Origin: Candidatus Omnitrophica bacterium UBA6253
GTDB taxonomy: Bacteria; Omnitrophota; Gorgyraeia; Gygaellales; Profunditerraquicolaceae
DNA length: 64,000 nucleotides
Assembly (NCBI GenBank): GCA_002441245.1
Contig: DJVP01000008.1
Location: forward strand, 12,593 to 76,592
Direction of reading: 5' to 3'
A program made the position numbers and the translations under genes. The notes under the pieces are model-generated. The model was not told the DNA's origin. It saw nothing but the letters and a program-made list of their open reading frames with translations, and made no database searches. Shown piece after piece: positions 15,406 to 36,582 of this stretch (position 1 is the stretch's first letter; each line of letters starts with the position of its first letter).

Positions 15406-15489
15406 AAGTAATTCGATTATACCACTTCCATCACAAAGTAGTAGGGCTTTATAGCAAAACAGCTGCTAATGTTCACTTATATATTGTTT

Positions 15490-16627: not shown

Positions 16628-16645
16628 CTTATTTGCTCCTTTTAT

Positions 16646-17206
16646 CTAATCCCGCTTCATTAAAGCTAATGCCTCAGAGCGGGTCTTTTGGTTCTCTTTA
16701 AAGATACCCCGTACAGCACTGGTTACTGTCATTACCCCAGGCTTCCTTACGCCGCGCATAGACATACAAAGATGCTCAGCCTCAATTACCACCATTACCC
16801 CTAAAGGATTTAATTTTCCCATAATAATCTCGGCAATCTGAGTAGTCAGGCGCTCCTGAACCTGCGGCCGGCGGCTCAATATATCAACCACCCGGGCAAG
16901 CTTACTTAAACCCGTGACCCTGCCATTCTTGGGAATATAAGCGATATTTACCCTGCCGGTAAAAGGCAAAAGGTGGTGTTCGCAGACAGAATATAAGGGG
17001 ATCCCGCGTAACAATATAATTTCATGGTGCTTTTGCTCAAGTATAACCTCCAACTCTTTTTCCGGATCCTGCTTTATTCCGGAAAATATCTCTTCATACA
17101 TATCGGCAACCCGGCTCGGAGTCTCCAACAAATCTTTTCTTTTGGGATTCTCGCCAATGGCTTCCAATATCTGGCGGACCGCTTTTTCAATTTTAATTTT
17201 ATTCAT
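16646..17206 (-). CDS. folE: GTP cyclohydrolase I
   Basis: 186 aa. Has the [11 protein letters not shown] and HLCMSMRGV motifs of FolE. Confidence 0.9.
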
Positions 17207-17284
17207 TTCTTTCTCTAATCCTTATTTTTACAAACCAGCTATAGGGGTTATTATCTAATGAAAACCAGCTTTCTGCAATAGGTT

Positions 17285-18688
17285 TTATTTACCAATGCAG
17301 AAATCAGAAAAAATCCTGTCCAGGAGATCCTCCGTTAAATCCCTTCCCAGAATTTTATCTAAATTAAAACTGGCATCCTTTAAATCCTGCGTAAGGAATT
17401 CTAACGGAAGTTTATCAGTCAAGACGGATACGGCATTATTGAGCAATTTCTGAGCTTCTTTGAGCGCGCTGATATGCCTTAAATTACTCACCAGCATAAG
17501 TTCCGGGCCAGGCAACTTGCCCTGATAAACAAATTCACAAAGCGCATCTTCAAGCAGGTTGATATTTTTTCCCTTCTTGGCGGAAATTTCAACTACTGTC
17601 TGGAACACCTTAAAAATCTCCTTTTTCCTGAGCTTCGCCTTTAAATCAATTTTATTGATTACCGCAACCGCCCGCTTATTTTTTATTTCTTTAATCAGTT
17701 TTCGGTCGCTATCTTCTAATTTTCTGCTTGCGTCAAATAAAATAATTACCAGGTCTGCTGAACGTATATGCGTCTTTGCCCGGCCAACAGCTTTCTTTTC
17801 AACAATATCACGGGGTTTTAAAATCCCCGCAGTATCCACAATCCTCACCGGAATACCCTTTATATCAATCACTTCTTCAATTGAATCACGGGTAGTTCCG
17901 GCGACAGAAGTTACTATGGAACGTTCTTTTTTGGTTAGGGCATTTAAAAGAGAGGATTTACCCACATTTGGTTTTCCGCAGATAACTACGTGTATCCCAT
18001 CACGCAATATCCTGCCGGTTCTGGCGCTTTCCAGCAACTTGTTTAACTGAAACCTGACCGTATTAAGATCTTGGGATATTTTTACCATATCCTGTTTTTT
18101 AAGGTCTTCTTCGGGAAAATCAATATTCGCCTCTAAAATTACCAGCGTATTTAACAAGGCCTGGCGTAGCTTAGCTATTTCTTTTGACAGGCCTCCTTTT
18201 AGCTGTTCCAGGCCTATTTTTAAGGCAGAATCAGTCTTTGCGCGGATAATATCAATAACTGCCTCTGCCTGAGCCAAATCAATCCTGCCATTTAGAAATG
18301 CCCGTCTGGTAAATTCACCTGGAGAAGCCAGGCGGCAGCCATTCTCTAACACTAAATCCAGGACTTTACGCAAGGCAACAACTCCTCCGTGGCAATTTAT
18401 CTCCACAACATTCTCCCTGGTATAAGAATGCGGAGAACGCATTATCGTAAGGATAACCTCATCAAGTATCTGACCCCCATGGATTATCTTACCATAATGC
18501 ATAGTATAGGTTTTAAACCCTGATGGCTTTGCCTCATTTTTGCCAACGAATACGCTATCGGCAATAGCCAATGCCCGCGGCCCGCTTAAACGCACAATCC
18601 CTACTGCTCCTTCTCCAGAGGCAGTAGAAATTGCGGCAATTGTATCATTGAGGTTATCTATAAGCATCTCTAAATTCACCAACCACAA
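17285..18688 (-). CDS. mnmE: tRNA modification GTPase MnmE (TrmE)
   Basis: 467 aa. G-domain GKPNVGKSSLLNAL and the C-terminal CIGK motif. Confidence 0.9.
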   Translation of the reverse strand: MWLVNLEMLIDNLNDTIAAISTASGEGAVGIVRLSGPRALAIADSVFVGKNEAKPSGFKTYTMHYGKIIHGGQILDEVILTIMRSPHSYTRENVVEINCHGGVVALRKVLDLVLENGCRLASPGEFTRRAFLNGRIDLAQAEAVIDIIRAKTDSALKIGLEQLKGGLSKEIAKLRQALLNTLVILEANIDFPEEDLKKQDMVKISQDLNTVRFQLNKLLESARTGRILRDGIHVVICGKPNVGKSSLLNALTKKERSIVTSVAGTTRDSIEEVIDIKGIPVRIVDTAGILKPRDIVEKKAVGRAKTHIRSADLVIILFDASRKLEDSDRKLIKEIKNKRAVAVINKIDLKAKLRKKEIFKVFQTVVEISAKKGKNINLLEDALCEFVYQGKLPGPELMLVSNLRHISALKEAQKLLNNAVSVLTDKLPLEFLTQDLKDASFNLDKILGRDLTEDLLDRIFSDFCIGK

Positions 18689-19970
18689 ATAAAGATCCAG
18701 TAACTAATATTAAATCCATCTTACCTGCAATTTTCAAAGCAAGTTTCTTTGCCTCTTTTACTCCAGCGGTTAAAAACACCTCTCCCCTTTTATCGATGAG
18801 GTATCTCTTTAAGTCTTCAGGTTTTACTGCCCGCGGATTATCAGCGCGTGTTAAGATAATTTTATGCGCCAGGCCGCAAAGCTGGCTAAGTATCCCTTTA
18901 ACATCTTTATCAAGCGAAACACCAAGCACTAATATCAGCTTCTTGTATTTAAAAATGTCTTTGACTGCTGATTTTAAAACCATGGCGGATGCGGCATTCT
19001 GGGCGCCATCAACTACGATATAAGGCTTACGCCAAAGCACCTCCAGCCGGCCAGGCCAAAGAGTATTATAGAGCCCTTTTCTCACGCAATCAACACTGAC
19101 TTTATAACCGTAAGCGCCTAAAGCTTCAATTATGCCAACGGAAAGAGTGGCATTAATCAGCTGGTGCCCGCCTAAAAGATTAATCCGTAAATTAGTATAA
19201 TTGTTATTTACCCCTTTTATTAAAAAATGTCTGCCTTTAGTAAAATATTCTATCTCTTTGCCAACCGTAAGGAGTTTTGCCTGCATGCCAGAGGCCGCAT
19301 TCTTGATAACAAGCGCTGCCTCTTTTTCCTGAGGAGAAGAAACAACAATTGCCTTCTGTTTTATAATTCCTGCTTTTTCTCCGGCGATACGGGTTAAAGT
19401 TTTGCCCAGATATCGGGTATGTTCATAGCTTATCGGGGTTATGGCGCAGACCAGGCTTTTTACGACATTAGTCGCATCCAGCCTGCCGCCCATGCCGGTT
19501 TCCATTACTACAAAATCCACTTTTTTTTCTTTAAAGTACAGCAAGGCCAATGCGGTATAAACCTCAAAAAAAGAAAGTTTGCCGAATCTTTTTATAACCG
19601 GTTTTAAGAAATTAACCAGGCGGATAAGATATTTCCTGGATATGGTGCCTTCAAATGGCAAAAGGGTACTTGCTTCGGTAGGCTTAAGAATACGGATACG
19701 CTCCCTGAAATCCGATAAATGCGGAGAGGTATACAGGCCAACGGAGAAACCTGCCTGCCTTAAAATGTAGGCGCAAAAAGCACATGTAGAACCCTTGCCT
19801 TTAGAGCCAGCGATATGAATAACTTTAAGTTTATCCTGGGGATTACTGATTAACTGTAAAAAGCTTCTGATTCTTTTAAGGCCGAGGGATTTTTTATAGG
19901 AATAACGGTTTATTCTTTCGTAATCAACAAGAGATTCCAGATATTTAACCGCTGAGTGATATCCATCCAT
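18654..19970 (-). CDS. folC: Bifunctional folylpolyglutamate synthase / dihydrofolate synthase
   Basis: 438 aa with a Mur-ligase fold. P-loop IHIAGSKGKGST. Confidence 0.85.
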   Translation of the reverse strand: MDGYHSAVKYLESLVDYERINRYSYKKSLGLKRIRSFLQLISNPQDKLKVIHIAGSKGKGSTCAFCAYILRQAGFSVGLYTSPHLSDFRERIRILKPTEASTLLPFEGTISRKYLIRLVNFLKPVIKRFGKLSFFEVYTALALLYFKEKKVDFVVMETGMGGRLDATNVVKSLVCAITPISYEHTRYLGKTLTRIAGEKAGIIKQKAIVVSSPQEKEAALVIKNAASGMQAKLLTVGKEIEYFTKGRHFLIKGVNNNYTNLRINLLGGHQLINATLSVGIIEALGAYGYKVSVDCVRKGLYNTLWPGRLEVLWRKPYIVVDGAQNAASAMVLKSAVKDIFKYKKLILVLGVSLDKDVKGILSQLCGLAHKIILTRADNPRAVKPEDLKRYLIDKRGEVFLTAGVKEAKKLALKIAGKMDLILVTGSLFVVGEFRDAYR

Positions 19971-21532
19971 TAATGCCTGAAGTGCCTTATGCCGGTTACG
20001 ACCATGGCAATTTTATATTTATCGCAGGCATCAATAATCTTCTGGTCAGCGATAGAACCACCTGGCTGGATTATCGCCTGAGCACCTGCCTTATGCGCCC
20101 AAGAGATCGCGTCCTCCTTCGGAAAAAACGCATCCGAAGCCATGCAGCAACCTTTACTCAAATTAGCGGATTTCTTTTTGGCAATCATCACTGAATCTAC
20201 ACGGGACATTTGGCCGGCGCCAATACCTACAGTCCTTGTCCCTTTGGTAAAAACAATGGCATTGGATTTAACATGCTTAGCTACCTTCCAACCAAAGATC
20301 AAGCTTTCCATTTGAGCCTTTGTTGGCCTTTTCTTAGTAACCACCTTAAGGTTACTTAAATCAAGAGCAAGCAGATCCTTTTCCTGTAAAAGCATTCCGC
20401 CACTGACACGTTTAAATTCCAGTTCAGCAATAACACTTAAGTCATCCAACTCCAATAGGCGCAGGTTTTTCTTGTTTTGGAATAATTTTAAAGTCTCTTT
20501 ATCATAAGCAGGAGCAATAATGCATTCAAGAAAACCGCTCTTAGCCACAACCTTGGCAGTGGATAAATCCATTTTCCTGTTTAATGCCACAATCCCGCCA
20601 AAGGCAGAAAGCTGGTCGCACTTCCAGGCATTTAAGTAAGCCTTATGCAAAAATTTGTCTTCGGCAGCTCCGCAAGGGTTGTTATGTTTAACGATAACCG
20701 CGGCCGGGTTTTTGAATTCTTTCAGCAATTCAAAAGCAGAATTTAAATCTAAAATATTATTGAATGAAAGTTCTTTCCCTTGCAACTGACGGGCATTAAC
20801 CAGGCCTTTTGTTTTGCCTTTTTCTTTGTAAAAGGCAGCCTGCTGATGGGGATTCTCGCCATAACGCAGACCCTGGACCTTTTCAAAAGATAAATCTAAT
20901 TCAGCAGGAAAACTATCTTTGGTTTTATGGATTTTAAAATAACTGCTCAAATAATTATATATGGCAGCATCATATTTACTAGTACGGGCATAAGCCTCAA
21001 TACCTAATTCGCGCATCAAATCTTCAGAGAGAGAACCATTATTCTTTTCCAATTCAGCAATTACCTGGGCATAACGCTCAGGTTCGCAAATTACCGCTAC
21101 AGACCGATGATTTTTTGCCGCTGAACGCAACATAGACGGTCCACCAATATCTATATTTTCAATAACCTCATTAATGCTTACCCCTGGCTTTCGGACAGTT
21201 TTCTCAAAAGGATAAAGATTGACCACAACCAAATCAATAAGCCCGATACCTTGTTCTTCCAATACCCGCATATGCTCACGGTTATTACGTAAGGCAAGCA
21301 GGCCTCCATGAATCTTAGGATGCAATGTTTTAACCCTTCCATCGAGCATCTCGGAAAATCCGGTATAAACAGAAACATCCTTGACCGGGATATTATTTTC
21401 ACGCAGCAGCTTTGCCGTACCCCCCGTAGAGATAATCTCCACGCCAAATTTCTTCAATGTTTCAGCCAAATCCAGGATACCAGTCTTATCCGACAAACTG
21501 ATAAGCGCCCGCTTGATCTTGACCATTATCAT
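19970..21532 (-). CDS. purH: Bifunctional AICAR transformylase / IMP cyclohydrolase
   Basis: 520 aa. N-terminal MGS-like ALISLSDKTGI...STGGTAK. The C-terminal AICARFT domain ends IRHFRH. Confidence 0.9.
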   Translation of the reverse strand: MIMVKIKRALISLSDKTGILDLAETLKKFGVEIISTGGTAKLLRENNIPVKDVSVYTGFSEMLDGRVKTLHPKIHGGLLALRNNREHMRVLEEQGIGLIDLVVVNLYPFEKTVRKPGVSINEVIENIDIGGPSMLRSAAKNHRSVAVICEPERYAQVIAELEKNNGSLSEDLMRELGIEAYARTSKYDAAIYNYLSSYFKIHKTKDSFPAELDLSFEKVQGLRYGENPHQQAAFYKEKGKTKGLVNARQLQGKELSFNNILDLNSAFELLKEFKNPAAVIVKHNNPCGAAEDKFLHKAYLNAWKCDQLSAFGGIVALNRKMDLSTAKVVAKSGFLECIIAPAYDKETLKLFQNKKNLRLLELDDLSVIAELEFKRVSGGMLLQEKDLLALDLSNLKVVTKKRPTKAQMESLIFGWKVAKHVKSNAIVFTKGTRTVGIGAGQMSRVDSVMIAKKKSANLSKGCCMASDAFFPKEDAISWAHKAGAQAIIQPGGSIADQKIIDACDKYKIAMVVTGIRHFRH

Positions 21533-21568
21533 TCCCCCTCTTGATAAAAATTATTTTCCCCGCATAAA

Positions 21569-22270
21569 TTACTTATTAAAACGGAAATTAACTAAATCTC
21601 CGTCCTGCATAATATATTCCTTTTGCTCAAGGCGCATCTTTCCTGCCTGCTTTGCCTGGGTCTCTCCGCCAGATTGGATGAAATCAGAAAAACTTATAAT
21701 TTCAGCCCGGATAAACCCCTGCTGAATATCAGAATGAATTGCCCCTGCAGCTTCCCAGGCAGTAGTTCCTTTCTTGATTAACCATGCCCTGTTTTCTTTA
21801 TCTCCCACGGTAAGAAAACAGATAAATCCGCTTTGCGCTAAAGTCTTAACCAACAGGTCGCCTATATTCCCTGGCTCTTCTTTATCTATCAATACCACTG
21901 GTTTAATAGTAAACAGGCCGTAACCGGAAATAAGCTCTTTATCTTCATTGGATAACCCGACGGTAGAAACAAATTCTTCTTTTTCCAGGGCCCCTTTCAT
22001 TTTATTTAATACTTCTTTTTCTTTCTCCTCCGGTTGCCTGCTTAAACGGGTTTCCACAAAATCTAAATCCCTCAAAATCAAATCCGTTTTGGCATCCTTC
22101 GGGGCAATGATCACATCCGACTCTAAAGCTGCGTCCTCGCCAGCTACCTCTACCTGTGCATAAGTCTTCTTCTTGGCCTTGACCAACTTGTCCGCCTGGT
22201 CGAGCTTGTCATCTTTTATGTTGTGCTTACCTAAAGTAATCTCCGTTATTGCAAATGCGCTTATTTTCAT
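21569..22270 (-). CDS. YchF (Obg-like ATPase)-related protein with only the helical insertion and C-terminal TGS domains; no G domain
   Basis: 233 aa. The C-terminus RAWLIKKGTTAWEAAGAIHSDIQQGFIRAEIISFSDFIQSGGETQAKQAGKMRLEQKEYIMQDGDLVNFRFN aligns with the YchF TGS domain. There is no P-loop, and only 10 nt separate it from the upstream gene. Confidence 0.6.
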   Translation of the reverse strand: MKISAFAITEITLGKHNIKDDKLDQADKLVKAKKKTYAQVEVAGEDAALESDVIIAPKDAKTDLILRDLDFVETRLSRQPEEKEKEVLNKMKGALEKEEFVSTVGLSNEDKELISGYGLFTIKPVVLIDKEEPGNIGDLLVKTLAQSGFICFLTVGDKENRAWLIKKGTTAWEAAGAIHSDIQQGFIRAEIISFSDFIQSGGETQAKQAGKMRLEQKEYIMQDGDLVNFRFNK

Positions 22271-22280
22271 AATTATTAAG

Positions 22281-24242
22281 TTAGTGGCTAACTTCCTCGT
22301 GTTTTTTGGTGGACTGATACTGGTTGATAATTGGCAAGGCTAATTTTTGCGGCAGGTTTTCGTAGTGAGACAGGTGCATCAAGTATGAACCGCGCCCAGC
22401 GGTGATTGAACGCAGGTCGTTGGTATACTTAAACATTTCCGATAAAGGCACCTGGGCCTTTACGAGTTGCGTTTTACCCTTAATCTCCATTCCTATAATC
22501 CGTCCGCGCCGGGAATTAATATCACCGGTAATGGCGCCTAAACATTCTTCGGGGATAGTAACCTCTATTTCCATGATTGGTTCTAATAAGGCCGGGCCGG
22601 CCTCGCTTACCGCTTTTCTTAAGGCCATCGCCCCTGCGATCTGAAAGGCCATGTCTGAAGAATCGACTTCATGGTATGAACCGTCTACCAAGGTAACCCG
22701 CACATCTTCTAACGGATACCCCGCAACCGCCCCTTCGCTGGCTGCCTGGCGCACGCCTTTTTCAACAGATGGGATAAAATTACGAGGGATTGCGCCCCCG
22801 AATATTTTATCCACAAACTCTAACCCCTTGCCTCTTTCTAAAGGCTGTATTTCAATAGTACAATCACCATACTGGCCCCGACCTCCGGATTGCCTTTTAA
22901 ATTTCCCCTGGACCCTTGCGCTTTTAGTAATCGTTTCTTTGTATGAAACCTTGGGAGTTCCCAATTCAACAGTAACATTGAATCTTTTTTTCATCCTGGC
23001 AACCATAACATCAAGGTGTAAATCTCCTAACCCGGAAATAATCAGTTCCTTGGTCTGTATATCATGAGAAACCTTAAATGTCGGATCATCCGTAGTCAAT
23101 TTATGCAAGGCCACGGCAATCTTTTCTTCATCCTCACGGGATTTAAGTTTTACCGATGCCGAGATCGACGGTTCCGGAAAAGATAAACGTTCGAACAAAA
23201 ATTGTTCCTTCTCTTGAGCCAAGGAATCAGAAACGCCGGTTTCTTTAAGTTTAGGGATAGCTATAAGGTCCCCACAGGAAGCCCCATCTAAACCCCTTTG
23301 TTCCCTACCCTGCAAAATATTAATCTGGCCGATCCTTTCTTTAGTCTTTTTGTTCACGTTATAAAAACTGGAGTTGGAACCAAGCGTTCCGGAAAAAACA
23401 CGCAACAGCGAAAGCTGCCCTACGTAAGGATCGGAAATATTCTTAAAAACAAAGGCTGAAAAAGGAGCTTCTTCCTTTAAAACCAGCTCCTTTATTTCAT
23501 CTGCTTTTAAGGGGTTGATGGCAATTACAGGAACCCTGTCTAAAGGGCTGGGGAAATACTGCAATATATCATCCAGCAAATCTTTGATTCCTTTATCCGT
23601 AAGCGCAGAACCAACAACTACCGGAAAAAGTTTACGCTTATAGACTGCTGCGGCCAACCCGCCCTTAATTTCGTCTATCGATAACCTTAATACTGAAAGA
23701 TATTTCTCCAGAAGGCTATCATCACTTTCAGCGATGGCTTCCATCAAAAGCGGATCTTCCAAAGACTCAATAATTACGCAGTTTTTAGAAAAACTTGATT
23801 TTAACTCTGCCAGCACCTTATTGGCATCAGCGCCTTCTTTGTCAATTTTATTAATGAATATCAAACAGGGGAGGCCTGCTGCTTCAACCATCTGCCAAGC
23901 ACGCTCCGTACCTACCTGTATGCCGCTTGCAGCATCCATAACAATAACTGCACTGTCTACTGCGCGCAACCCCGCGATGGTCTCACCAAAGAAATCTGCG
24001 TAGCCGGGAGTATCAATAACCTGGATACGACAACCTTCATAATCACAAAAGAGCAAGCTTAAATTTATGGAATTTTTTCTTTCAATCTCATCAAAACTGT
24101 AATCGCTTACCGTAGAACCATCTTCCACCTTTCCCTTGCGATTAACAGTTTTTGTAAAATAAAGCAGGCTTTCGGCGAGCGTGGTCTTGCCTGACTGGGC
24201 ATGCCCTAAGAGGATAAAATTTCTTTTATTCTTAGCATCCAT
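22281..24242 (-). CDS. EF-G-family translational GTPase paralog
   Basis: 653 aa. G1 is LGHAQSGKTTL, then DTPGYADF and NKID. EF-G-like domains II-V follow. Confidence 0.8.
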   Translation of the reverse strand: MDAKNKRNFILLGHAQSGKTTLAESLLYFTKTVNRKGKVEDGSTVSDYSFDEIERKNSINLSLLFCDYEGCRIQVIDTPGYADFFGETIAGLRAVDSAVIVMDAASGIQVGTERAWQMVEAAGLPCLIFINKIDKEGADANKVLAELKSSFSKNCVIIESLEDPLLMEAIAESDDSLLEKYLSVLRLSIDEIKGGLAAAVYKRKLFPVVVGSALTDKGIKDLLDDILQYFPSPLDRVPVIAINPLKADEIKELVLKEEAPFSAFVFKNISDPYVGQLSLLRVFSGTLGSNSSFYNVNKKTKERIGQINILQGREQRGLDGASCGDLIAIPKLKETGVSDSLAQEKEQFLFERLSFPEPSISASVKLKSREDEEKIAVALHKLTTDDPTFKVSHDIQTKELIISGLGDLHLDVMVARMKKRFNVTVELGTPKVSYKETITKSARVQGKFKRQSGGRGQYGDCTIEIQPLERGKGLEFVDKIFGGAIPRNFIPSVEKGVRQAASEGAVAGYPLEDVRVTLVDGSYHEVDSSDMAFQIAGAMALRKAVSEAGPALLEPIMEIEVTIPEECLGAITGDINSRRGRIIGMEIKGKTQLVKAQVPLSEMFKYTNDLRSITAGRGSYLMHLSHYENLPQKLALPIINQYQSTKKHEEVSH

Positions 24243-24284
24243 ATCGCGCCCCTTTTTAGGAAGCAGGTACAGCTAGCCTAATAA

Positions 24285-25472
24285 CTATTCCAGGTAGGTA
24301 TAAATCTTGCCTTTATAATTACGCAGCACATATTTACCCTTGGCTTGAGAAAGAATATAATTCGGACCTATAGGAATCTTTCCGCCTCCACCCGGTCCAT
24401 CAATCACATAAGTCGGAACGGCATAACCTGAAGTATGACCGCGTAATTTCTCAATAATATTGATCCCGGTGGCTACAGGAGTGCGGAAATGCTGTGTACC
24501 CCTGACCGGATCGCACTGGTAAATATAATACGGCCTTACCCTTATCTGCAAAAGATCATGTACCAGGCGCCTCATAATATACGGCCGGTCATTAATCCCC
24601 TTGAGAAGTACTGACTGGCTGCCTAAAGGTACACCGGATTCCGAGAGCATATCACAGGCATTTTTACAGCGCTTGGTAATCTCTTTCGGATGATTAAAAT
24701 GTATACTCATCCAGATAGATGAATATTTCTTGAGCATATTCACTAGTTTATCCGTAATGCGCTGTGGAAGAGTAACCGGTATACGCGTGCCTATCCTTAA
24801 TAATTCAACGTGAGATATATCGCGAATTCTTGAAATCAGAGACTCCAAAACTTCATCCTCTAAAATAAGCGGATCGCCTCCTGAAATTAACACATCTCTT
24901 ATCTTGCGATTAGTTTTTATATATTCTATTGCCGCGTCAAATTTAGTTTCAGGGTTTAGCTCTTTTATTTCATGGTCTCCGACCAAACGTCTTCGGGTAC
25001 AATGCCGGCAATACATAGCGCAATGATCTGTAGCCAATAATAAAACCCTGTCTGGATACCGATGCACCAAATGAGGTACAGGAGAATCCCGGTCTTCAGC
25101 GCAAGGATCAGCCATCTCATGCGGGGAAACGGCGAATTCATCGCTAACCGGCACAGATTGCCTCCTTATAGGGCAATTCGGATCATCAACATCTATCAAG
25201 CTTGCCCAATAAGGAGTAATAGCCATAGCCAATCTCCCTCTGGCCTTATCAATCCCCTTTTCTTCCTGAGGAGTAAGCTTTATAATTTGAGTTAATTCTT
25301 CTTTGGTGCAAATCCTGTGCTTGAGCTGCCAATGCCAATCTTCCCAATCTAAAGGATTGACATCTTTATAAAGAGAAATTTGCTGATAATCCCGTGAACG
25401 CTTTGGCGGCCGCGGAATAACCGGTGTCTCAATCTGTACTTTTTGGCTTTCTAAACTTGAAGGATTGCTCAA
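24285..25472 (-). CDS. KamA-family radical SAM aminomutase (lysine 2,3-aminomutase-like)
   Basis: 395 aa. The CAMYCRHCTRRR CxxxCxxC cluster is in the KamA context, with the PLP-region GGDPL. Confidence 0.8.
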   Translation of the reverse strand: MSNPSSLESQKVQIETPVIPRPPKRSRDYQQISLYKDVNPLDWEDWHWQLKHRICTKEELTQIIKLTPQEEKGIDKARGRLAMAITPYWASLIDVDDPNCPIRRQSVPVSDEFAVSPHEMADPCAEDRDSPVPHLVHRYPDRVLLLATDHCAMYCRHCTRRRLVGDHEIKELNPETKFDAAIEYIKTNRKIRDVLISGGDPLILEDEVLESLISRIRDISHVELLRIGTRIPVTLPQRITDKLVNMLKKYSSIWMSIHFNHPKEITKRCKNACDMLSESGVPLGSQSVLLKGINDRPYIMRRLVHDLLQIRVRPYYIYQCDPVRGTQHFRTPVATGINIIEKLRGHTSGYAVPTYVIDGPGGGGKIPIGPNYILSQAKGKYVLRNYKGKIYTYLE

Positions 25473-26470
25473 TTTAGCCTTTTCCTTTCTGAGGCGCTTA
25501 TGAGTATTGCCTCAATAAGATCATCATATGCCATCCCTGCAGCATAAGCCATTATCGGAAAGTTAGATTCCTTGGGATCTAACCCCGGCAAGGGATTAAT
25601 CTCTAACACGTAAGGCGTATTAGTTTTATCCAAACGGATATCAGTGCGCGAAATATCCAAGCAGCCTACAGCGCGATGCGTGCGCAAAGCTACATCTTTG
25701 ACCTTCTCCTCAACATCTTTATCCAAGCGCGCAGGGCAATGAAATTCAGGGACTAATCCTAGTTCAGTATTGCCCTGAAATTCTTTCATTTTCCAGGAAT
25801 AAAAATATTCTCCGCTTTCTTTGCAATTAGAAAAGTCAATCTCCAGGATAGGCAGTACGCGTGTTTTTCCATTCTCCAAAATTCCCACCGTCAATTCTTT
25901 GCCTTCAATAAATTCCTCAACTAGGGCCTCTTGCCGGTATATATTTATACACTCTTTGACTTTTTTAAAAAGATCGTCTTTGCCATTGACCACATTTGTC
26001 TTATTTATACCCTTGGCCGATCCTTCGCAATTAGGCTTGACGATTAGCGGAAAAACCAGGTCTGCGGACAATTCTTCATCACCTTTTACAAAAAGCTGAA
26101 AATTAGGAGTAGGGATCCCCTCTGCCTTTAATATCTTTTTAGTTAAAGCTTTATTTAAGGCCAACGCTAACGAAAATGTATTGGATCCAGTATAAGGTAT
26201 ATTTAAATAATCGAGCACTGCAGGAACCTCGGATTCGCGGAAACGCCCATGCTTGCCTTCAGCTATATTAAAAACCATGTCCACGCTATTTTTCTTAAAA
26301 TAGGAAAACAGCGCCGGATACTCAACATCAATCCCCTCAACAGAATGCCCCTTATTCTTAAGCGCGCTGATCACAGAATTAATTGTCTCTTCGGAGTCAT
26401 ATTCAGAAAAATAATCAACCGGTTTCAAAGGATCCTTTTTTTTCAGGTTATAGGTCAAGGCAACTTTCAT
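25469..26470 (-). CDS. D-alanine--D-alanine-ligase-family ATP-grasp enzyme
   Basis: 333 aa with Ddl-like N-terminal, central and ATP-grasp C-terminal domains (EINPLPGL). It overlaps the KamA start by 4 nt. Confidence 0.7.
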   Translation of the reverse strand: MKVALTYNLKKKDPLKPVDYFSEYDSEETINSVISALKNKGHSVEGIDVEYPALFSYFKKNSVDMVFNIAEGKHGRFRESEVPAVLDYLNIPYTGSNTFSLALALNKALTKKILKAEGIPTPNFQLFVKGDEELSADLVFPLIVKPNCEGSAKGINKTNVVNGKDDLFKKVKECINIYRQEALVEEFIEGKELTVGILENGKTRVLPILEIDFSNCKESGEYFYSWKMKEFQGNTELGLVPEFHCPARLDKDVEEKVKDVALRTHRAVGCLDISRTDIRLDKTNTPYVLEINPLPGLDPKESNFPIMAYAAGMAYDDLIEAILISASERKRLN

Positions 26471-27460
26471 TTAATTTAAACCATTGCGGATAATGGCGCT
26501 ATTTAAAATCTTACCGACCATCTGTTCATAGGTGATGCCGATATTCTGGGCAACAAGCATAAAAACATCCTCGGTAGACAGAGAAGGCAATGGGTTAATC
26601 TCTAAAACATAAGGGTTACCGTTATTATCAACCCTGAAATCCACCCTGCCAAAATCCCGGCATTCTACACCGTTATAAACCCGTAAAGCTAAATCATTTA
26701 ATTTCTTTTTTAGTTCATGATTAATTTTAGCCGGACATATATACTCCAACCTGTCGGAAGTAATCCGCGCAAATGTATAGAACTTATCGTTTAATTTTAA
26801 TTTTCCGTCTATTTTAATCTGAACTACAGGCATAATTTCAGGATTTTCATTGCCAACAATAGCAACGGTGAATTCCTGCCCAGAGATAAATTCTTCAACC
26901 AAAGCCGGCTGCTTATATGTCTTAGTAATAAAATCAACCTGTTTTTTAAGTTCTTCCATATTTTCTACGCGAGAACTTTCACTCAATCCTTTTGATGAAC
27001 CTTCAAAACGCGGCTTTACAATTAACGGGAACTTACAGCGGGCATGATCAACCAAGGCATCCGCAGAGTTAACTTCAAAAAAATTTGGAGTAGGTATTCC
27101 TTCTGCGATAAAAATCTTCTTAGCCATAACTTTATCCAGTGTAAGCCCCAAGGTTAAAGCATCTGCCCCCACGAAGGGGATTTGCGCCATTTCAAGTAAA
27201 ACAGGAACCTGAGATTCACGGTTCCTGCCGGTAAGCCCTTCGGAAATATTAAAAACAATATCCACTCCCAGATTATCCATTTTCTCCAGCAGGTTAGTGG
27301 CATTACCTATTTTTTTCACCTTAAAGCCGTTTGCCGCAATAGCCTTACCGATAATATCAATAGTAGTAGGATGATCAAACTCCGCATTGGCATCCAGCGG
27401 ATCTCCTTTTTTAAACTTATAATCTGTTTTCAAGTCATAGGTTAAACCTACGGTTTTCAT
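26471..27460 (-). CDS. D-alanine--D-alanine-ligase-family ATP-grasp enzyme, tandem paralog
   Basis: 329 aa with the same architecture as 25469..26470 (EINPLPSL). It is directly adjacent to that gene. Confidence 0.7.
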   Translation of the reverse strand: MKTVGLTYDLKTDYKFKKGDPLDANAEFDHPTTIDIIGKAIAANGFKVKKIGNATNLLEKMDNLGVDIVFNISEGLTGRNRESQVPVLLEMAQIPFVGADALTLGLTLDKVMAKKIFIAEGIPTPNFFEVNSADALVDHARCKFPLIVKPRFEGSSKGLSESSRVENMEELKKQVDFITKTYKQPALVEEFISGQEFTVAIVGNENPEIMPVVQIKIDGKLKLNDKFYTFARITSDRLEYICPAKINHELKKKLNDLALRVYNGVECRDFGRVDFRVDNNGNPYVLEINPLPSLSTEDVFMLVAQNIGITYEQMVGKILNSAIIRNGLN

Positions 27461-27796
27461 AATATTTACTTCATCCTATCCCGTATCACAAGATACGACT
27501 ATCAAAAAAATAAGGGCCCGATTCGCTTGCAATAATGAGCCCTTTAGACATCTATCTAATTTTTCCCAACTTAGTTTATCCAACCTCCTAAATAAACATT
27601 TAAACATTATATTTATATTATTTTTTATCATAATATCCTGTTATTGTCAAGTATTTTTTGTGCTTGTTTCCCGACGATAAAATAATATTTATAGCATATT
27701 TGTAATTTTAGTTTTTATTTTCTCACAACTAGTAGCCCTGGGCCCTTTAAACTGTTCCTAAAACAGCTTTTAAGCTACTAATGTTTAATTATTTGT

Positions 27797-27825
27797 TTGA
27801 CTTGTTTATTATTTTAAAATAGAAT
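27797..27825 (+). promoter_or_regulatory. Possible leaderless promoter: TTGACT, 17-nt spacer, TAGAAT
   Basis: -35 at 27797-27802 and -10 at 27820-27825. The ATG at 27834 is only 8 nt downstream, so the transcript may be leaderless. Sequence inspection only. Confidence 0.2.
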
Positions 27826-27833
27826 TACTCATA

Positions 27834-28955
27834 ATGCAGTATCTAGTTTTAGTCCTGATATTTATCCGGCCGTTTATCTCCTCCCTGGCTTACCCCTGGG
27901 AGAATTCAGTATATTCTCTTGCGCTCATAGCCATACTTTTATTCTGGCTTATAAGAAGCAGCGTCTCACTTGAAAGGCTAAAAAAGCTGTCCCTGCCGAT
28001 TATTGTTTTCGTTCTTGCCATATCCTTATCCTCTTATTTTTCAGTAAATAAGATTAAAAATGCCGCAGAATCATATAAATACTTGAGCGGGATATTGCTT
28101 ATCCTGACCCTGCCAAGCTTAACAGAAAAATTCAGGAAACGCTACATCGCAGGGATATTAACCTGCTGCATGGTTATCAGCATACTGGCAATATATCAGT
28201 ATTTTATTGGTTTCTCGCATTTACGTAATTTCATAAATACACAAAACATAACCGCTCCTTTTATCTTAGATTACCTGCGGCAAAAAAGGGTCTTTTTTCC
28301 TTTTGTTACTCCGGGAACACTTGCGGGTTATCTGGTCATGGTCGCCCCGCTCATACTCTTATATAAAAGAAGAGCTTGGCTTTTTATCCCCCTACTATGC
28401 GCTTTATTCCTTACTCAATCCCTGGGTGCTTTCATCAGCTTGTTTCTAACTGCTATGGTCTATGTATTGTTAAAAAATGATTTTAAAAAAATAAGGGGAA
28501 TTTTTATGCTAGGATTTCTAGTTCTATTTATCCCTCTAATATTCTTTATGAGGATTTCATCCGGGAAGGAACACCTTAGCCCGCTATTCTCTGTATTTAT
28601 GCGTATTAACTACTGGCAAGACACCATTGGAATAATCAAAATGCACCCGTTCCTCGGGGTGGGGATGGGTAATTTTAATCTGGCCTATTCACGTTACGCG
28701 CATAACTCCTTCCTGCAATTATGGGCGGAGACTGGTTTAATCGGGATAGTGTCGTTATTTTGGCTAATTTATGCGATCCTGGTAAACAGCGTTGGCAAAC
28801 TTAAAAACCTTGCTGGCGATAAAGAAACCCTTATTCTTGCTACTTGCCTGGCAGCATTTATCTTCCACAATTTATGGGATTTTAGCTTCTTCCTCCCAGA
28901 GGTAAGTTTAATTTGGTGGGCAATCCTAGGCCTGCTTTCCAAGCCTAAATCTTAG
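27834..28955 (+). CDS. O-antigen ligase / O-antigen polymerase family membrane protein (Wzy_C domain)
   Basis: 373 aa, polytopic. The motif HNSFLQLWAETGLIG is typical of WaaL/Wzy_C. Confidence 0.65.
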   Translation: MQYLVLVLIFIRPFISSLAYPWENSVYSLALIAILLFWLIRSSVSLERLKKLSLPIIVFVLAISLSSYFSVNKIKNAAESYKYLSGILLILTLPSLTEKFRKRYIAGILTCCMVISILAIYQYFIGFSHLRNFINTQNITAPFILDYLRQKRVFFPFVTPGTLAGYLVMVAPLILLYKRRAWLFIPLLCALFLTQSLGAFISLFLTAMVYVLLKNDFKKIRGIFMLGFLVLFIPLIFFMRISSGKEHLSPLFSVFMRINYWQDTIGIIKMHPFLGVGMGNFNLAYSRYAHNSFLQLWAETGLIGIVSLFWLIYAILVNSVGKLKNLAGDKETLILATCLAAFIFHNLWDFSFFLPEVSLIWWAILGLLSKPKS

Positions 28956-29865
28956 AAAAGCACCTTAATTTACGTAAAAATATCTTTGCTACCTTAGGCC
29001 GGAAAAATAAGACATATCCCCAGGCGAAAAAATCATACAATATCATTGGGATAAAGTGTATAAGAAGATTCAAAAGATTTGCATTTTTAAATATGGTAAA
29101 ATAGCGGTTTTTAATCAAATCGCCGTGCAATTCATCATTCAGATATCTACGCGCAATGGGTGCGCCTAACCCGCAATCAGGGCGGAATGACCCTCCGCGT
29201 GCATGAAACGCCTTTGCCGCGGGGATATAATAAGCCTTCCATCCGCAATTATTAGCCCTCCAAGAAATATCCAGATCTTCATAAAACATGCGAAAATCAT
29301 GATCAAAATAATCCTGCCCCTGTCTGATATCTTCCAGCATTTTCCTGCGATAAAAAGCTACCGCGCCGCTTACTCCAAAGATGAAGCCGGACTTTTCAAA
29401 TTTACCTGTATCTTTCCGGCCATACCCTCTTTCTTTGGCTGAATACCAAAGGCTTAAAAATAACCCGGTACTATCCAAAGTCGCGCCATCCATGCGCAAG
29501 ATCTTACCTCCAACCATCCCCACGTTATCGCTTATCAAAAAACCATTAAGCGCCTGGTAAATGAAATTCTGCCCTAAAACTACGTCGTCATTAAGACAAA
29601 GGACGAATTCGCCATGGCTTAATTTTATTCCTTTGTTTAACGATATACCATAGCATAGATTCTGCGGGCTTGAGTATAATCTTGCGGAAGGGAATACCTC
29701 TTTAATCTTAGCAGAAAAGTTTGATCTAAGCGAATTATCAATAACAATAACTTCCAGGTTGGGATAATTCTGCGCCTTTACAGACTCAAGGCATCGGCTT
29801 AAATAATCCTTTGAGCCGACGGTTACAATGATGATACTAACCAATATATCAGTATTGTTCTCCAT
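28945..29865 (-). CDS. Family 2 glycosyltransferase
   Basis: 306 aa. N-terminal VSIIIVTVGSKDYLSRCLESVKAQNYP and the DxD-like NDDV. Confidence 0.8.
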   Translation of the reverse strand: MENNTDILVSIIIVTVGSKDYLSRCLESVKAQNYPNLEVIVIDNSLRSNFSAKIKEVFPSARLYSSPQNLCYGISLNKGIKLSHGEFVLCLNDDVVLGQNFIYQALNGFLISDNVGMVGGKILRMDGATLDSTGLFLSLWYSAKERGYGRKDTGKFEKSGFIFGVSGAVAFYRRKMLEDIRQGQDYFDHDFRMFYEDLDISWRANNCGWKAYYIPAAKAFHARGGSFRPDCGLGAPIARRYLNDELHGDLIKNRYFTIFKNANLLNLLIHFIPMILYDFFAWGYVLFFRPKVAKIFLRKLRCFSKI

Positions 29866-31348
29866 GGTTCTTTTCTATGCGCTCAATTGCATCCCGATAG
29901 AAAATTACCTCCCCCCGGGAAGAACCCAGCCACACCTCCAGGACTACTTTATCTGGATATTCTTTTATTATCTTTGCCTGTAAGTGCCGTCCATTCTTCA
30001 AATAAATCACGTCTTTCTGCTCCGAGTACGTTTTTACTTTAGGCAAAGATTGTTTATCTAGCCTGGATATTTCATTATCTATAAAGTCTTCACCCGTAGA
30101 AAGTTGCTTTGCTTTTTCCAATGCCTTTAAAGCTAAATCCGTATTTTGCATTTTTTCATTTATTTTAGACAAGGTTAGATAAGCCTGCCGATAACGGGGG
30201 TAGGAATCTATCACGCCATTTATAATCTCCCTGGCTTTTTCAGATTCGCCAATCCCATTTAAAGCGTGGGCATAATTATTAAGCAAAACTGGATTATCAG
30301 GATTATTTCTAAGTTCCTGCTGGCAATAACGTGCTTCTTTCTGATACTCTAAGACAGCCTGGGCACGATTATCTAAAGCATAATAAATATCTGCCAAATC
30401 ATTATACAAGTTAGGATAGTCATTCTTTAATACGATCAGCTTGCTGTATTCCGAGATTGCTTGGTTAAACATCTTATTATCGCGATAGAGGCTGCCTAAG
30501 CTATAAATATAATCCGCGTTATCCGGCTCCAGACTTACTGCTTTTTTTAAATAAGCAATTGCTTCTGCATATCGCTCCAGGTGCATTAACGCCAGGCCCA
30601 AATCATTATAGATAGCGGCGTCATTATTATTTAAGGCGAGTGCATCCTTGGCAAAAGATAATTCTTTTTTAAAGTCTCCTTTTTTAAAATACACCTGACT
30701 GAGTAATTTATGCGCATAATGAAACTGCGGGTCTATTAAGAGGGTTTTTTTCAGGCTGGCTTCGGCATTATCATAATCTTTAACGCAAAAGTAATAATAA
30801 CCCAGGGTATACTGGGCTACGGCAAAATCAGGACATGATTTAAGCGCCTCTTTTAAAAGAGATATTGCTTCTGTGCTCTTGTCCGCCAAAAGCAACTCCG
30901 TGCTCTTGTTCAGGGTAGAGACTACAAAGGCATAACAGCATTCCTGCGAAGATTGGATGACATCTGGATTATTCGGGGTATTATTCCGTGCCCGGCTAAT
31001 GACACTCAAGGCTTCAGCATGGTTGCCTTTTTGAGAATACATTTCTGCCAAGGATTTATAAGCTTTTACACAGAGAGGGTCTATGCTTAAGACTTTATTG
31101 TATTCATCCGCCGCTTTATCATAATCCTGGATATCTCTATATGCCTCCGCTAATCCCATATGAGCCAACCAGGATTGCGGATTTATTTTAAGGGCATTCC
31201 CATAGGATTCTATTGCTTCTTTGTATAGAGCTCTCCCTGAATAATCATTGCCCTGATTATAAAAAAAAGCCTCAAGTTTTCCCCGGGCCAGATATAAAAA
31301 GATAACTAAAACTACTAGAAGCAACAAATATTCAATTATTTTTTTCAT
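29849..31348 (-). CDS. TPR-repeat protein with an N-terminal membrane anchor
   Basis: 499 aa. Many 34-aa TPR units with the A..Y......Y..A...Y...L..P pattern. Confidence 0.7.
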   Translation of the reverse strand: MKKIIEYLLLLVVLVIFLYLARGKLEAFFYNQGNDYSGRALYKEAIESYGNALKINPQSWLAHMGLAEAYRDIQDYDKAADEYNKVLSIDPLCVKAYKSLAEMYSQKGNHAEALSVISRARNNTPNNPDVIQSSQECCYAFVVSTLNKSTELLLADKSTEAISLLKEALKSCPDFAVAQYTLGYYYFCVKDYDNAEASLKKTLLIDPQFHYAHKLLSQVYFKKGDFKKELSFAKDALALNNNDAAIYNDLGLALMHLERYAEAIAYLKKAVSLEPDNADYIYSLGSLYRDNKMFNQAISEYSKLIVLKNDYPNLYNDLADIYYALDNRAQAVLEYQKEARYCQQELRNNPDNPVLLNNYAHALNGIGESEKAREIINGVIDSYPRYRQAYLTLSKINEKMQNTDLALKALEKAKQLSTGEDFIDNEISRLDKQSLPKVKTYSEQKDVIYLKNGRHLQAKIIKEYPDKVVLEVWLGSSRGEVIFYRDAIERIEKNHGEQY

Positions 31349-32643
31349 CTTATAATTTTATCTGCTACCCGCCTGCCATCAAGTATCGCCTCTTCCATGG
31401 ACATATATTTCCAGCTTCCATAGCGGCCACAAGCAATTATATTATTGTGCGATAAAAACTCTCCTATTGCCGCCGTAGCCTGGAGATAATATTTGTCGTA
31501 AATAGGATAACCGTATTTTATATCATTTATATCTAAAACGGACACCCTGTTCTTCTTGCCCAGGATTCCACGGGTCTTAAGGCCGTTAATTATTTTCGGA
31601 ATAATTTTATTTTTATTAACCGGCCTGTTTTTAGAATATGCGACCTCGGTATATATGGCACTCTTTCCACTAGGAACGGTATTATTAGAAAAACTGTGGA
31701 AAAAACCAACCCTAAAGAAAACAGTATCCTTATGCGGAAAATATATCCAATGCCTGCCTTCTTGGCAGCCCCCTTCTACCCCAAGATTAAGATTAAATAT
31801 CGAATTCCAGCGTAATTTCTTAAACATATCCATAATATTCCCGGGTAGAGGCCGGATTATTTTTGCCAGTTCAGGCAATGGTATTGTTGAAATCAAAGTA
31901 TCAAACTTAATTTTTTCCTTGCCCGCGACATTTAATTCCTTTTTCTGAATATCAATTGCGCTAATTCCAAACCCTTTGTGTACATTGCAAAGCTGCTGCT
32001 CAAATGCCAGGGGAAGCTGTCCTATGCCTGCCTGCCGGGGATACCAAAAAGTAGCATTGTAACCAAAGTGATGTTTGTTTTCCGCAAAAAACCCCTCAAT
32101 AACTTCAGAAGGCCTGGGCACAGGTATAAAATTATCCGTCCAAGCAGAAATCATTTTATCTAAAGGGACTGTCCAGAATTTCTCATTGTAAGGTATCATA
32201 AAATGCCTGGCTATACCTTTGCCAAATGTAATATTTATCCATTTTAATAAATTATCCGGGGTATTATCTTGATAAGTCTGGCTGGCCTTTAAGAATTCAA
32301 ATAGGCATTCTTTGGCTATTGGCCTGGGCAATGCGCAAAGATTCGCCTGAAAAGGATACCGGCTGAATATGCCAAAGCTATTAACCCAGGCACTCCTTTT
32401 ATGGGAGACCAAATTACCCTTTAACAACATCCTTACCAACTGCAGGGTATATTTATTTCTGAAATGCAGGAGATGGCCGTCACAATCAAAAATAAAACCT
32501 TTGATCTTTTTAGAGCGGCACAGTCCACCTACGGCAGGCTCTTTTTCAAACACAGAGCATTCTATTTTCTTCTTCTGAAGATGCCAGGCTGCGCTTAATC
32601 CCGCAAGCCCTGCCCCTAAAATAACGATTTTCTTATTGCTCAT
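31345..32643 (-). CDS. FAD-dependent oxidoreductase, possibly UDP-galactopyranose-mutase-like
   Basis: 432 aa. VILGAGLAGLSAA dinucleotide-binding motif. FDCDGHLLHF resembles the Glf motif region. Confidence 0.45.
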   Translation of the reverse strand: MSNKKIVILGAGLAGLSAAWHLQKKKIECSVFEKEPAVGGLCRSKKIKGFIFDCDGHLLHFRNKYTLQLVRMLLKGNLVSHKRSAWVNSFGIFSRYPFQANLCALPRPIAKECLFEFLKASQTYQDNTPDNLLKWINITFGKGIARHFMIPYNEKFWTVPLDKMISAWTDNFIPVPRPSEVIEGFFAENKHHFGYNATFWYPRQAGIGQLPLAFEQQLCNVHKGFGISAIDIQKKELNVAGKEKIKFDTLISTIPLPELAKIIRPLPGNIMDMFKKLRWNSIFNLNLGVEGGCQEGRHWIYFPHKDTVFFRVGFFHSFSNNTVPSGKSAIYTEVAYSKNRPVNKNKIIPKIINGLKTRGILGKKNRVSVLDINDIKYGYPIYDKYYLQATAAIGEFLSHNNIIACGRYGSWKYMSMEEAILDGRRVADKIIR

Positions 32644-33619
32644 CTGTATCTATTTTAATCAGCTTCCAAAATAAAATAATACTGAAGAAGAACATGGCTA
32701 TAACAATACCAGTTGCCCAAAAATTGCTCACTTTTATTAAAACCACTCCCGCCAGGGAGAAAAGGAAACAAAACAAAAACATGAGCAAAATAGTCTTTAT
32801 GGGGCTGGCAGCGGAAAGCCTTATCCTAAATGCGATATGATCATTGCTTTTTTTAAAAGGCATCTTTCTTTTTATTACCCTAAAAATAATAAGTAGCAGC
32901 GTGTCTATGATGGGGAGCCATAAGATTACTATCGGGCTTAATAAGGCAAGGGCGTTATCTTTGGAGGCATAACGCAAAACCAAGGTAATGGCGCAAATCA
33001 TAAACCCTAAAAAGTGGCTTCCGGAATTTCCTAGATATACACTTGCCGGAGGTAAGTTAAAAACCAGGAACCCAAAAGTTACCGCACATAAAATAAGAGA
33101 GAGGATCTGCATATTTAAATCCGGATTAAGAAAAGCTATAGCTAATAAGGAACTGCTTACAATGAAAGCGGTGCCAGCAGCTAAGCCGTCCATAATATCC
33201 AGTAGGTTAAAAGCATTGGTAATCCCTAAAATCCAGAAAAATGTAACTACGGCATTGCCCCAAAAACCCAAATACATAATATCAGTCATTATTCCAAAGG
33301 AGATCAGCAAAACTGCGCATAGAGACTGAACTAAGAATTTTTGCAGGATAGACAATTCCTTTAAATCATCCAATATGCCAAAGAATAACATCAAAAGCGA
33401 TACTCCTAGTACTGCAAGTATTTTAGCCCCCGCAGCACCAAACACATACACGCCTAAACAAGAAGAAAACACAAAAGCAACCCCTATCCCTATCCCCCCA
33501 ACCGAAGAAATACCTTTTGTTTGCAGTATTCTATATTTTAAAGAAACCTTTGCCAGTAAAAATATGCACAGCATGCTGGATATCAAAGCACCGGATAAGA
33601 CAATCAGGTATTTAAGCAT
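32633..33619 (-). CDS. WecA/MraY-family polyprenyl-phosphate sugar-1-phosphate transferase
   Basis: 328 aa, polytopic. NAFNLLDIMDGLAAG matches the NxxNxxDGxDGL motif. Confidence 0.8.
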   Translation of the reverse strand: MLKYLIVLSGALISSMLCIFLLAKVSLKYRILQTKGISSVGGIGIGVAFVFSSCLGVYVFGAAGAKILAVLGVSLLMLFFGILDDLKELSILQKFLVQSLCAVLLISFGIMTDIMYLGFWGNAVVTFFWILGITNAFNLLDIMDGLAAGTAFIVSSSLLAIAFLNPDLNMQILSLILCAVTFGFLVFNLPPASVYLGNSGSHFLGFMICAITLVLRYASKDNALALLSPIVILWLPIIDTLLLIIFRVIKRKMPFKKSNDHIAFRIRLSAASPIKTILLMFLFCFLFSLAGVVLIKVSNFWATGIVIAMFFFSIILFWKLIKIDTDEQ

Positions 33620-34784: not shown

Positions 34785-34903
34785 TCGATTATTATATTAC
34801 TTTTGGAATAAAACCGCAAGTTTATTAAGGAGTTACGGAGTTCATCTTACTAATTAACAACCTTAAACCTTGTAATAAAAACTGGCATGCATATTAATAA
34901 AAA

Positions 34904-35569: not shown

Positions 35570-35572
35570 TTG

Positions 35573-36556: not shown

Positions 36557-36582
36557 TCTGCTGTCTCCTTATATTTTAATGA

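Follow-up and report, generated by a model that had tools for sequence, protein, structure and literature searches.

What does a bacterium make when a lysine 2,3-aminomutase is encoded head to tail with two ligases that resemble D-alanine-D-alanine ligase (Ddl)? Three such genes, which we call GraspA, GraspB and KamA, lie in a 64,000-nt stretch (the window) of contig DJVP01000008.1 from Candidatus Omnitrophica bacterium UBA6253 (GCA_002441245.1); the closest homologues of the window genes are named Candidatus Omnitrophota or Omnitrophica. Three fates of beta-lysine are known: it is acetylated to give an osmolyte, attached to elongation factor P (EF-P), or incorporated into antibiotics by nonribosomal peptide synthetases (NRPS). 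The module described here points to a fourth, ligation by ATP-grasp enzymes. We put at roughly 60% the probability that the three genes work as a single module, producing beta-lysine and condensing it in ATP-dependent steps to a small amide (either a di- or tripeptide or a short oligomer). An earlier note, made from the sequence alone, had suggested a route to a dipeptide or oligomer containing a beta-amino acid, and that suggestion is supported by the lysine-type KamA, by ligases that are not Ddl, by close linkage of the genes and by gene fusions elsewhere.

The three open reading frames (ORFs; Table 1) adjoin or overlap on the minus strand, with the coordinates and lengths given in the earlier note. 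That note placed KamA first, but in the direction of transcription the order is GraspA, GraspB, KamA, head to tail, and both ligases precede the aminomutase. The TAA stop of GraspA directly abuts the ATG of GraspB, and the TGA stop of GraspB shares bases with the TTG start of KamA in a TTGA overlap. Domains and families were scanned in the window ORFs at 7551..63812, those at 218..7554 being left out.

Which amino acid KamA rearranges was assessed with family models and by alignment to 2A5H, the lysine 2,3-aminomutase of Clostridium subterminale (E=1e-145). KamA narrowly passes the equivalog model for AblA lysine 2,3-aminomutase, TIGR03820 (532.3 bits against a cut-off of 525.4; E=7e-160), lies below the cut-offs of the glutamate and arginine 2,3-aminomutase models, and does not reach that of the EpmB model TIGR03821 (254.9 bits; cut-off 369.3). 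Its Fe-S motif, CxxxCxxC, reads CAMYCRHC, and the alignment shows that it keeps Lys337 (GGGGK), which binds pyridoxal phosphate (PLP), the carboxylate-binding Arg134, and both Asp293 and Asp330. These two aspartates bind the epsilon-ammonium group of lysine, and Lys and Asn take their places in glutamate 2,3-aminomutase. The earlier note had proposed to tell lysine from glutamate by these positions; because the Asp pair is present, the specificity is read as lysine. The pair is also kept in the KamA partners of six other ligase relatives (L083, L086, L089, L090, L092 and P0222). The alignment stops at residue 367 of the 416 in 2A5H, where KamA itself ends, so that about 50 C-terminal residues are missing from the window protein. 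As far as a sequence allows, these results identify KamA as a lysine 2,3-aminomutase that would convert L-lysine to beta-lysine.

GraspA and GraspB are 39% identical over their full length, and both match PF07478 (Dala_Dala_lig_C; E=2e-40 and E=5e-37, respectively). Neither reaches the level expected of Ddl itself. Against the best NCBIfam Ddl model, NF002378, GraspB scored 205.6 and GraspA 188.6 bits, both under the subfamily cut-off of 243; the two ligases scored 170 and 168 bits against TIGR01205 (cut-off 245.65); and both were far below the cut-offs of all Ddl equivalog models. A Pfam scan found no match to PF01820 (Dala_Dala_lig_N) in either protein, and this domain is also missing from the precomputed Pfam lists of family members, whereas canonical Ddl matches have it. 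Identity to solved Ddl structures is about 24-30%. An AlphaFold2 model of GraspA (mean predicted local distance difference test score, pLDDT, 87.7) found only Ddl among its best PDB matches, with a template modelling (TM) score of 0.78 at 24-27% identity and nothing else better. In a rough neighbour-joining tree the ligase family forms a clade separate from four canonical Ddl sequences.

To read the active sites, residues were counted across 161 GraspA and 119 GraspB orthologues and are numbered as in Escherichia coli DdlB. The ATP- and Mg-binding residues K97, K144, E180, E187, R255, D257, E270 and N272 are invariant in the orthologues of both ligases; in its own numbering GraspA has the catalytic residues K110, K149, E189, E196, R272, D274, E287 and N289. 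By contrast, the positions that bind D-alanine in Ddl have changed. In both ligases E15 is replaced by D, H63 by E and E68 by R or K. GraspA further carries I for K215, T or S for Y216, D for S281 and V for L282. GraspB retains K215, has E for Y216 in 118 of 119 orthologues, and is acidic at or close to positions 281-282, a stretch that aligns differently from run to run. All four canonical Ddl controls retain E15, H63, E68, K215, Y216 and L282, and three of the four retain S281. Because the scores fall below the cut-offs, PF01820 is absent and the D-Ala-binding residues are replaced, the two proteins are not bona fide Ddl. These residues suggest that GraspA and GraspB are active carboxylate-amine ligases with a product other than D-Ala-D-Ala, and the acidic residues gained in both sub-sites would fit cationic substrates such as diamino acids.

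To what extent do the ligases travel with KamA? The comparison used 96 loci, drawn from GTDB species genomes and from metagenomes, whose sequence continues for at least 3.6 kb past GraspA. In 95 of them KamA follows GraspA within 3 kb, GraspB is present in 87, and eight have GraspA and KamA without GraspB. The neighbourhood conservation that the earlier note wished to see checked is thus borne out, and independent fusions in archaea and bacteria add to it. A relative of the ligases is encoded in no fewer than 582 stretches of GTDB species genomes; the best 80 loci belong to Omnitrophota or to metagenome-assembled genomes labelled 'Planctomycetales', and a metagenome scan seeded with an Elusimicrobiota member again returned mostly Omnitrophota. 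GraspA is 60-93% identical across Omnitrophota. Compared with the window, the triad has a median identity of 74-79%, and FolC, MnmE and PurH one of 54-68%; since the triad is more conserved than these three proteins, its function seems important to the cell.

Outside Omnitrophota the two activities often share one polypeptide. Among the best 120 clusters found with P0222, 107 join KamA and the ligase family in one protein of 640-880 aa. Arg134, Asp293, Asp330 and Lys337 are present in 107 of these 107 fusion clusters, and the family signature D23, E74 and R81 is kept in most. Named members come from Thermoplasmatota, Methanocellales, Woesearchaeota, Nanoarchaeota, Spirochaetales and Deltaproteobacteria, so that the pairing, with more than 100 fusion clusters in archaea and bacteria, is not confined to one genome. 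Furthermore, two ligase domains share a single chain in about one third of the best 150 cluster representatives, which argues that paired ligases act together. A second fusion family has the reverse order, Grasp-KamA (P0195 and P0291-P0300), with Gln at the position of Asp293 and Asp, Asn or Glu in place of Arg134; these substitutions suggest that its members may act on a substrate other than free lysine. In L081 (8876-12157) the fusion gene follows genes for a GntC/VioD-like PLP enzyme and a RaSEA-like radical S-adenosylmethionine (radical-SAM) protein. A 40-aa ORF after the fusion gene in L081 and L082 was dropped as a candidate component, as it was represented by only two copies of one identical sequence.

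Separate genes and mixed arrangements also occur. Two loci (L086 and L089) encode Grasp-Grasp-GNAT-KamA; another (L093) has a KamA-Grasp and a Grasp-GNAT protein adjoining Na+/H+ exchangers; L083 has KamA, a double Grasp and a third Grasp beside an amino-acid permease; L090 has KamA and then Grasp; and an Elusimicrobiota locus (L092) has Grasp with KamA 4 kb away. The GNATs of related clusters matched RimI-like models below the cut-off, and a beta-lysine acetyltransferase model was not among their NCBIfam matches. The arrangement suggests that a GNAT caps one amine in those clusters, a step lacking in Omnitrophota. In two loci (L084, 8001-11116; L085, 8001-11126) a double-Grasp gene for 669-675 aa is directly followed by Peptidase_S58 genes of the DmpA/BapA type, and KamA is not nearby. 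Such neighbours fit small products with a free N-terminus bearing a beta- or D-amino acid. Conversely, the arrangement may hint at the natural substrates of S58 peptidases.

A more distant pairing was found in a cultured organism. On plasmid pMspAR10a of Mesorhizobium sp. AR10 (L174, NZ_CP080523.1 24072-26429), a lysine 2,3-aminomutase gene lies directly upstream of an ATP-grasp gene whose product is 37% identical to GraspA and is without the E74/GRNRES motif of the N-domain. Farther out are panD, about 2.7 kb upstream, and, on the downstream side, a second ATP-grasp gene at about 4.8 kb and a MATE exporter gene at about 6.5 kb. ATP-grasp proteins of rhizobial plasmids show 36-40% identity, and one of the three annotated plasmids viewed, that of AR10, has a neighbouring aminomutase. 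As a cultured rhizobium, Mesorhizobium sp. AR10 could serve as a tractable model.

Taken together, these observations outline a pathway. KamA would convert L-lysine to beta-lysine, and GraspA and GraspB would then turn a carboxylate into an acyl-phosphate and couple this to an amine, most likely linking beta-lysine to a second beta-lysine or to a different amino acid through two distinct amide-forming reactions. The pathway might yield a short oligomer or a compound resembling a di- or tripeptide, held in the cytoplasm as a cationic or zwitterionic solute, and expression of the module would be under its own conserved promoter, with transcription attenuation at a leader hairpin. The parts of this scheme differ in strength. 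From their fusion to, or gene adjacency with, a lysine-type KamA in both prokaryotic domains, we infer with fair confidence that the ligases act on beta-lysine or one of its derivatives. The pockets of the paralogues are distinct and separately conserved, which hints that two different amide bonds may be formed; and since GraspA alone persists in lineages that have lost GraspB, it could be the core ligase. The product might be a small, soluble di- or tripeptide or short oligomer and, by analogy with a known osmolyte, might serve as a cytoplasmic solute. It is a speculative and rather doubtful proposal that the module makes an undescribed, physiologically central metabolite, one possibility being an oligo-beta-lysine or beta-lysyl peptide polycation that replaces polyamines; if true, this fourth fate of beta-lysine would be shared across both prokaryotic domains, the module being found in nearly all fetched Omnitrophota loci and, as a single fused protein, in Thermoplasmatota, Methanocellales and DPANN archaea.

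Overall, what is new points to a combination of known enzyme families in an uncharacterised beta-lysine pathway that is widespread and unstudied. Many proteins of the family carry the annotation D-alanine-D-alanine ligase, which would mislead inferences about the cell wall, for example claims of ddl presence based on COGs. An identified product would assign a function to this large 'Ddl-like' family, and it might also supply a natural substrate for the S58 beta-aminopeptidases encoded beside some members.

Several points weigh against this reading. No member of the family has been characterised. Support for a solute role is thin, comprising one locus beside ion exchangers (L093) and the analogy with AblA/AblB. 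Adjacency within the phylum counts for little by itself, because synteny in Omnitrophota extends over a much longer block: u643, HhH-GPD, M20, PAC2, HAD, the triad, elongation factor G (EF-G), YchF-like, PurH, FolC and MnmE. One locus, L096, carries the ligase with KamA not nearby. As for the pockets, pLDDT falls below 50 at residues 219-223 of the GraspA model, the DdlB sequence used for comparison was checked for its length and for the expected residues at 20 positions only, and the alignment of the ligases to DdlB is uncertain in the N-terminal and omega-loop regions. In addition, a canonical ddl was not found in the window or the fetched loci, where only the GraspA and GraspB positions matched, these loci covering the surroundings of the triad and not whole genomes. 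The large genes that follow the ligase in L092 and L096 are unrelated to each other.

How does the proposed pathway compare with known systems? The AblA/AblB system, which makes N-epsilon-acetyl-beta-lysine, a compatible solute of methanogens, shares the first enzyme, as KamA passes the AblA equivalog cut-off. In both systems the aminomutase gene lies beside the gene or genes for processing beta-lysine, and a GNAT also appears in the related clusters of other lineages. The window module differs in having two ATP-dependent ligases instead of an acetyltransferase, and GNAT is absent from its operon and from the scanned window ORFs. EpmB and EpmA, which act on EF-P, likewise combine a KamA-family aminomutase that supplies beta-lysine with a nearby ATP-dependent ligase. 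However, the window aminomutase is of the AblA type and the window ligases are ATP-grasp enzymes, whereas EpmA is a paralogue of class II aminoacyl-tRNA synthetases; neither efp nor epmA turned up among the scanned window ORFs, in which no dedicated search for them was made. Ddl and VanA-type ligases share the fold (TM 0.78) and the ATP/Mg catalytic residues with GraspA and GraspB, and an acyl-phosphate mechanism is therefore expected. They differ in that the positions contacting D-Ala1 and D-Ala2 are mostly acidic in the Grasp proteins, in an identity of only about 24-30%, and in the fusion of Grasp to KamA in archaea.

Small soluble peptides are also made by Ngg, the synthetase of N-acetylglutaminylglutamine amide (NAGGN), which is a GNAT joined to an ATP-grasp domain, and by carnosine synthase, which makes beta-alanyl-histidine. 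One of these uses a beta-amino acid and the other is fused to a GNAT like the Grasp-GNAT protein of L093, but they belong to other ATP-grasp subfamilies and work without an aminomutase or beta-lysine. The blasticidin S pathway may pair an arginine 2,3-aminomutase with an ATP-grasp ligase. The poly-beta-lysine chain of streptothricin and nourseothricin is a beta-lysine oligomer that follows a lysine 2,3-aminomutase step; it differs in coming from an actinomycete antibiotic cluster without ATP-grasp ligases. The streptothricin chain is assembled by adenylating NRPS-type enzymes, according to Grammel et al. 2002 as cited in PMC11641026. Full-text searches, which did not cover the amidoligase survey of Iyer et al. 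2009, found no papers linking a KamA-family aminomutase to an ATP-grasp ligase.

Could the genes instead serve the cell envelope? Beta-lysine or a beta-lysyl peptide might be attached to a stem peptide or cross-bridge, a uronic-acid polysaccharide or a lipid head group, adding positive charge. Precedents among ATP-grasp ligases are D-aspartate ligase and Cj1438, which act on peptidoglycan or capsule, and an L,D-transpeptidase is also encoded in the window. In the window and several relatives the triad adjoins a Wzy_C/GT2/GT4/GT1 polysaccharide cluster, but this cluster is an insertion absent in most relatives. In Omnitrophota a stand-alone gene for LPG_synthase_C, the catalytic domain of MprF, keeps a syntenic place 6-14 kb upstream of the triad, and a distant homologue (L091, 4843-5808) directly follows a Grasp-KamA fusion, although this and the window protein are only about 22% identical. 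The nearest relatives of the ligases by sequence and fold are soluble small-molecule ligases, and KamA-Grasp fusions are common in archaea, which are not known to have murein. Thermoplasmatota, Woesearchaeota and Nanoarchaeota are all among the named fusions, which disfavours a peptidoglycan role for the family as a whole and with it, as a general role, the 'cell-wall stem-peptide variant' that the earlier note had listed. We therefore consider envelope modification unlikely. That the ligases are housekeeping Ddl paralogues lying beside KamA by chance is barely credible, although Ddl is their best-matching family, the Joint Genome Institute (JGI) annotation calls them D-alanine-D-alanine ligase, and the fetched loci, which span the triad surroundings only, contain no canonical ddl. 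The earlier note had envisaged finding such paralogues next to murF or ftsQ; the sub-cut-off scores, the missing PF01820, the replaced D-Ala-binding residues and the different neighbours speak against them, and the scanned window ORFs, the only ones examined for mur or fts genes, contain none. The separate clade in the tree and the occurrence of lysine-type KamA fusions in archaea, which are not known to have murein, tell against housekeeping Ddl as well. A COG-level survey has ddl conserved in Omnitrophota (PMC12283558), a statement that at this level cannot separate true Ddl from the GraspA/GraspB family.

Beta-lysylation of a translation factor or ribosomal protein, the ATP-grasp equivalent of what EpmA/EpmB do to EF-P or RimK does to S6, seems to us distinctly improbable. 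The operon does run on into genes for an EF-G paralogue and a YchF-like protein, with gaps of 10-42 nt, but many loci that carry the triad are without EF-G, and PurH, FolC and MnmE further downstream indicate general housekeeping synteny. Unusually strong purifying selection on the triad and its presence in small-genome lineages (Omnitrophota and DPANN archaea) would suit such a role, as would weak, sub-threshold Pfam matches to TTL and RimK. On the other hand, KamA is of the AblA type and not EpmB (254.9 bits against 369.3), small-molecule ligases are nearest to GraspA and GraspB by sequence and fold, and no target gene co-varies with the module. Production of an antibiotic-like compound containing a beta-amino acid is more remote still, and we hold it to be very unlikely. 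It would accord with the reverse-order fusions, which have Q293, have lost Arg134 and lie beside a GntC/VioD-like PLP enzyme and a radical-SAM gene, and with the Mesorhizobium plasmid, where lysine 2,3-aminomutase and ATP-grasp genes are paired near panD and MATE efflux genes. Unlike accessory biosynthetic clusters, however, the Omnitrophota triad is near-universal, very highly conserved and fixed in position among housekeeping genes, and export, resistance and tailoring genes do not accompany it in the window. The synthesis of a small beta-lysine amide remains the reading that we prefer.

A promoter-like element precedes GraspA on the minus strand, and the pattern CTTGACA-N17-TGTGATAAAAAAT is kept 5' of GraspA in about 40 Omnitrophota loci; a generic promoter scan did not list the TTGACA/-10 pair. 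Given its conservation, the element probably acts as the module's own promoter. In many loci (L007-L034 and others) a palindrome, ACAATATATTGT, lies inside the promoter spacer, about 250-290 nt 5' of GraspA, and loci with the palindrome have a further ACAATAT just 3' of the -10 element. The arrangement looks like an operator for a dimeric repressor.

Between promoter and coding sequence, a leader motif, GGAGG...AAGTTGGAAAAA, is common to about 40 Omnitrophota loci and is followed by a terminator-like hairpin. The leader alignment yields no consensus structure other than this G+C hairpin, whose arms vary by lineage with complementarity kept (AAGGGCTC/GAGCCCTT, AGGGACTTC/GAAGTCCCT and GAGACAC/GTGTCTC). 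Because the GraspA ATG follows the T-run by merely 8-13 nt in some loci, transcription must read through the hairpin. The leader is a candidate attenuator (or riboswitch). A scan against Rfam at a lax E-value gave chance-level matches only and no matching family. A leader peptide was also considered and rejected: a TTG mini-ORF follows the GGAGG (MEKIG*, MGKIR* or MKK*; MGKIR* in the window), but its frame and stop are not kept in close relatives, and the spacing from the Shine-Dalgarno sequence to the start is 13-15 nt.

Table 1. Features of the triad locus and of the wider window (window coordinates)
Feature	Coordinates	Strand	Length	Description
Promoter-like element	27620..27650	minus		TTGACA (27650..27645), 17-nt spacer, extended -10 TATGATAAAAAAT (27632..27620)
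Leader motif	27552..27588	minus		GGAGG...AAGTTGG(G/A)AAAAATT; primary-sequence conservation in distant Omnitrophota loci
Terminator-like hairpin	27544..27512; T-run 27510..27504	minus		AAGGGCTC...GGGCCCTT; 43 nt 5' of GraspA ATG
GraspA	27460..26471	minus	329 aa	Putative Ddl-fold ATP-grasp carboxylate-amine ligase
GraspB	26470..25469	minus	333 aa	Putative Ddl-fold ATP-grasp ligase, GraspA paralogue
KamA	25472..24285	minus	395 aa	Predicted lysine 2,3-aminomutase (radical SAM/PLP), TTG start
EF-G paralogue	22281-24242	minus	653 aa	Directly 3' of KamA
YchF-like protein	21569-22270	minus	233 aa	After EF-G paralogue
M20, PAC2, HAD block	34904-37728	minus		M20 (ArgE/DapE family), PAC2 (proteasome-assembly-chaperone-like), HAD
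643-aa protein	38338-40269	minus	643 aa	Without Pfam match
LPG_synthase_C	41166-42062	minus	298 aa	MprF catalytic domain; follows CxxCxxCC protein
V/A-type ATPase operon	44818-51855	minus		Subunits K/c, I, D, B, A, E and others

The immediate neighbours of the triad are Wzy/GT2 genes upstream and EF-G, YchF and PurH genes downstream. The EF-G paralogue scores above one EF-G subfamily cut-off and below the TIGR00484 equivalog cut-off, and is missing in many loci that retain the triad. The YchF-like protein matches YchF only in its C-terminal 90 or so residues, its N-terminal 140 residues being without a match, and Omnitrophota retain it, with 30-93% identity, behind either the EF-G paralogue or KamA.

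Farther upstream comes the M20/PAC2/HAD block, which about half of the loci have within 4.5 kb of the triad; in the window the polysaccharide cluster (GT1, GT4, amine oxidoreductase, TPR, GT2 and Wzy) is inserted between the two. The 643-aa protein occupies the same syntenic position in more than 30 Omnitrophota loci at 38-66% identity. The LPG_synthase_C gene may be linked to aminoacyl transfer, either onto lipids or onto the product of the pathway. The V/A-type ATPase operon adjoins pyrF, pyrD, pyrK, carA, carB, pyrC and pyrB.

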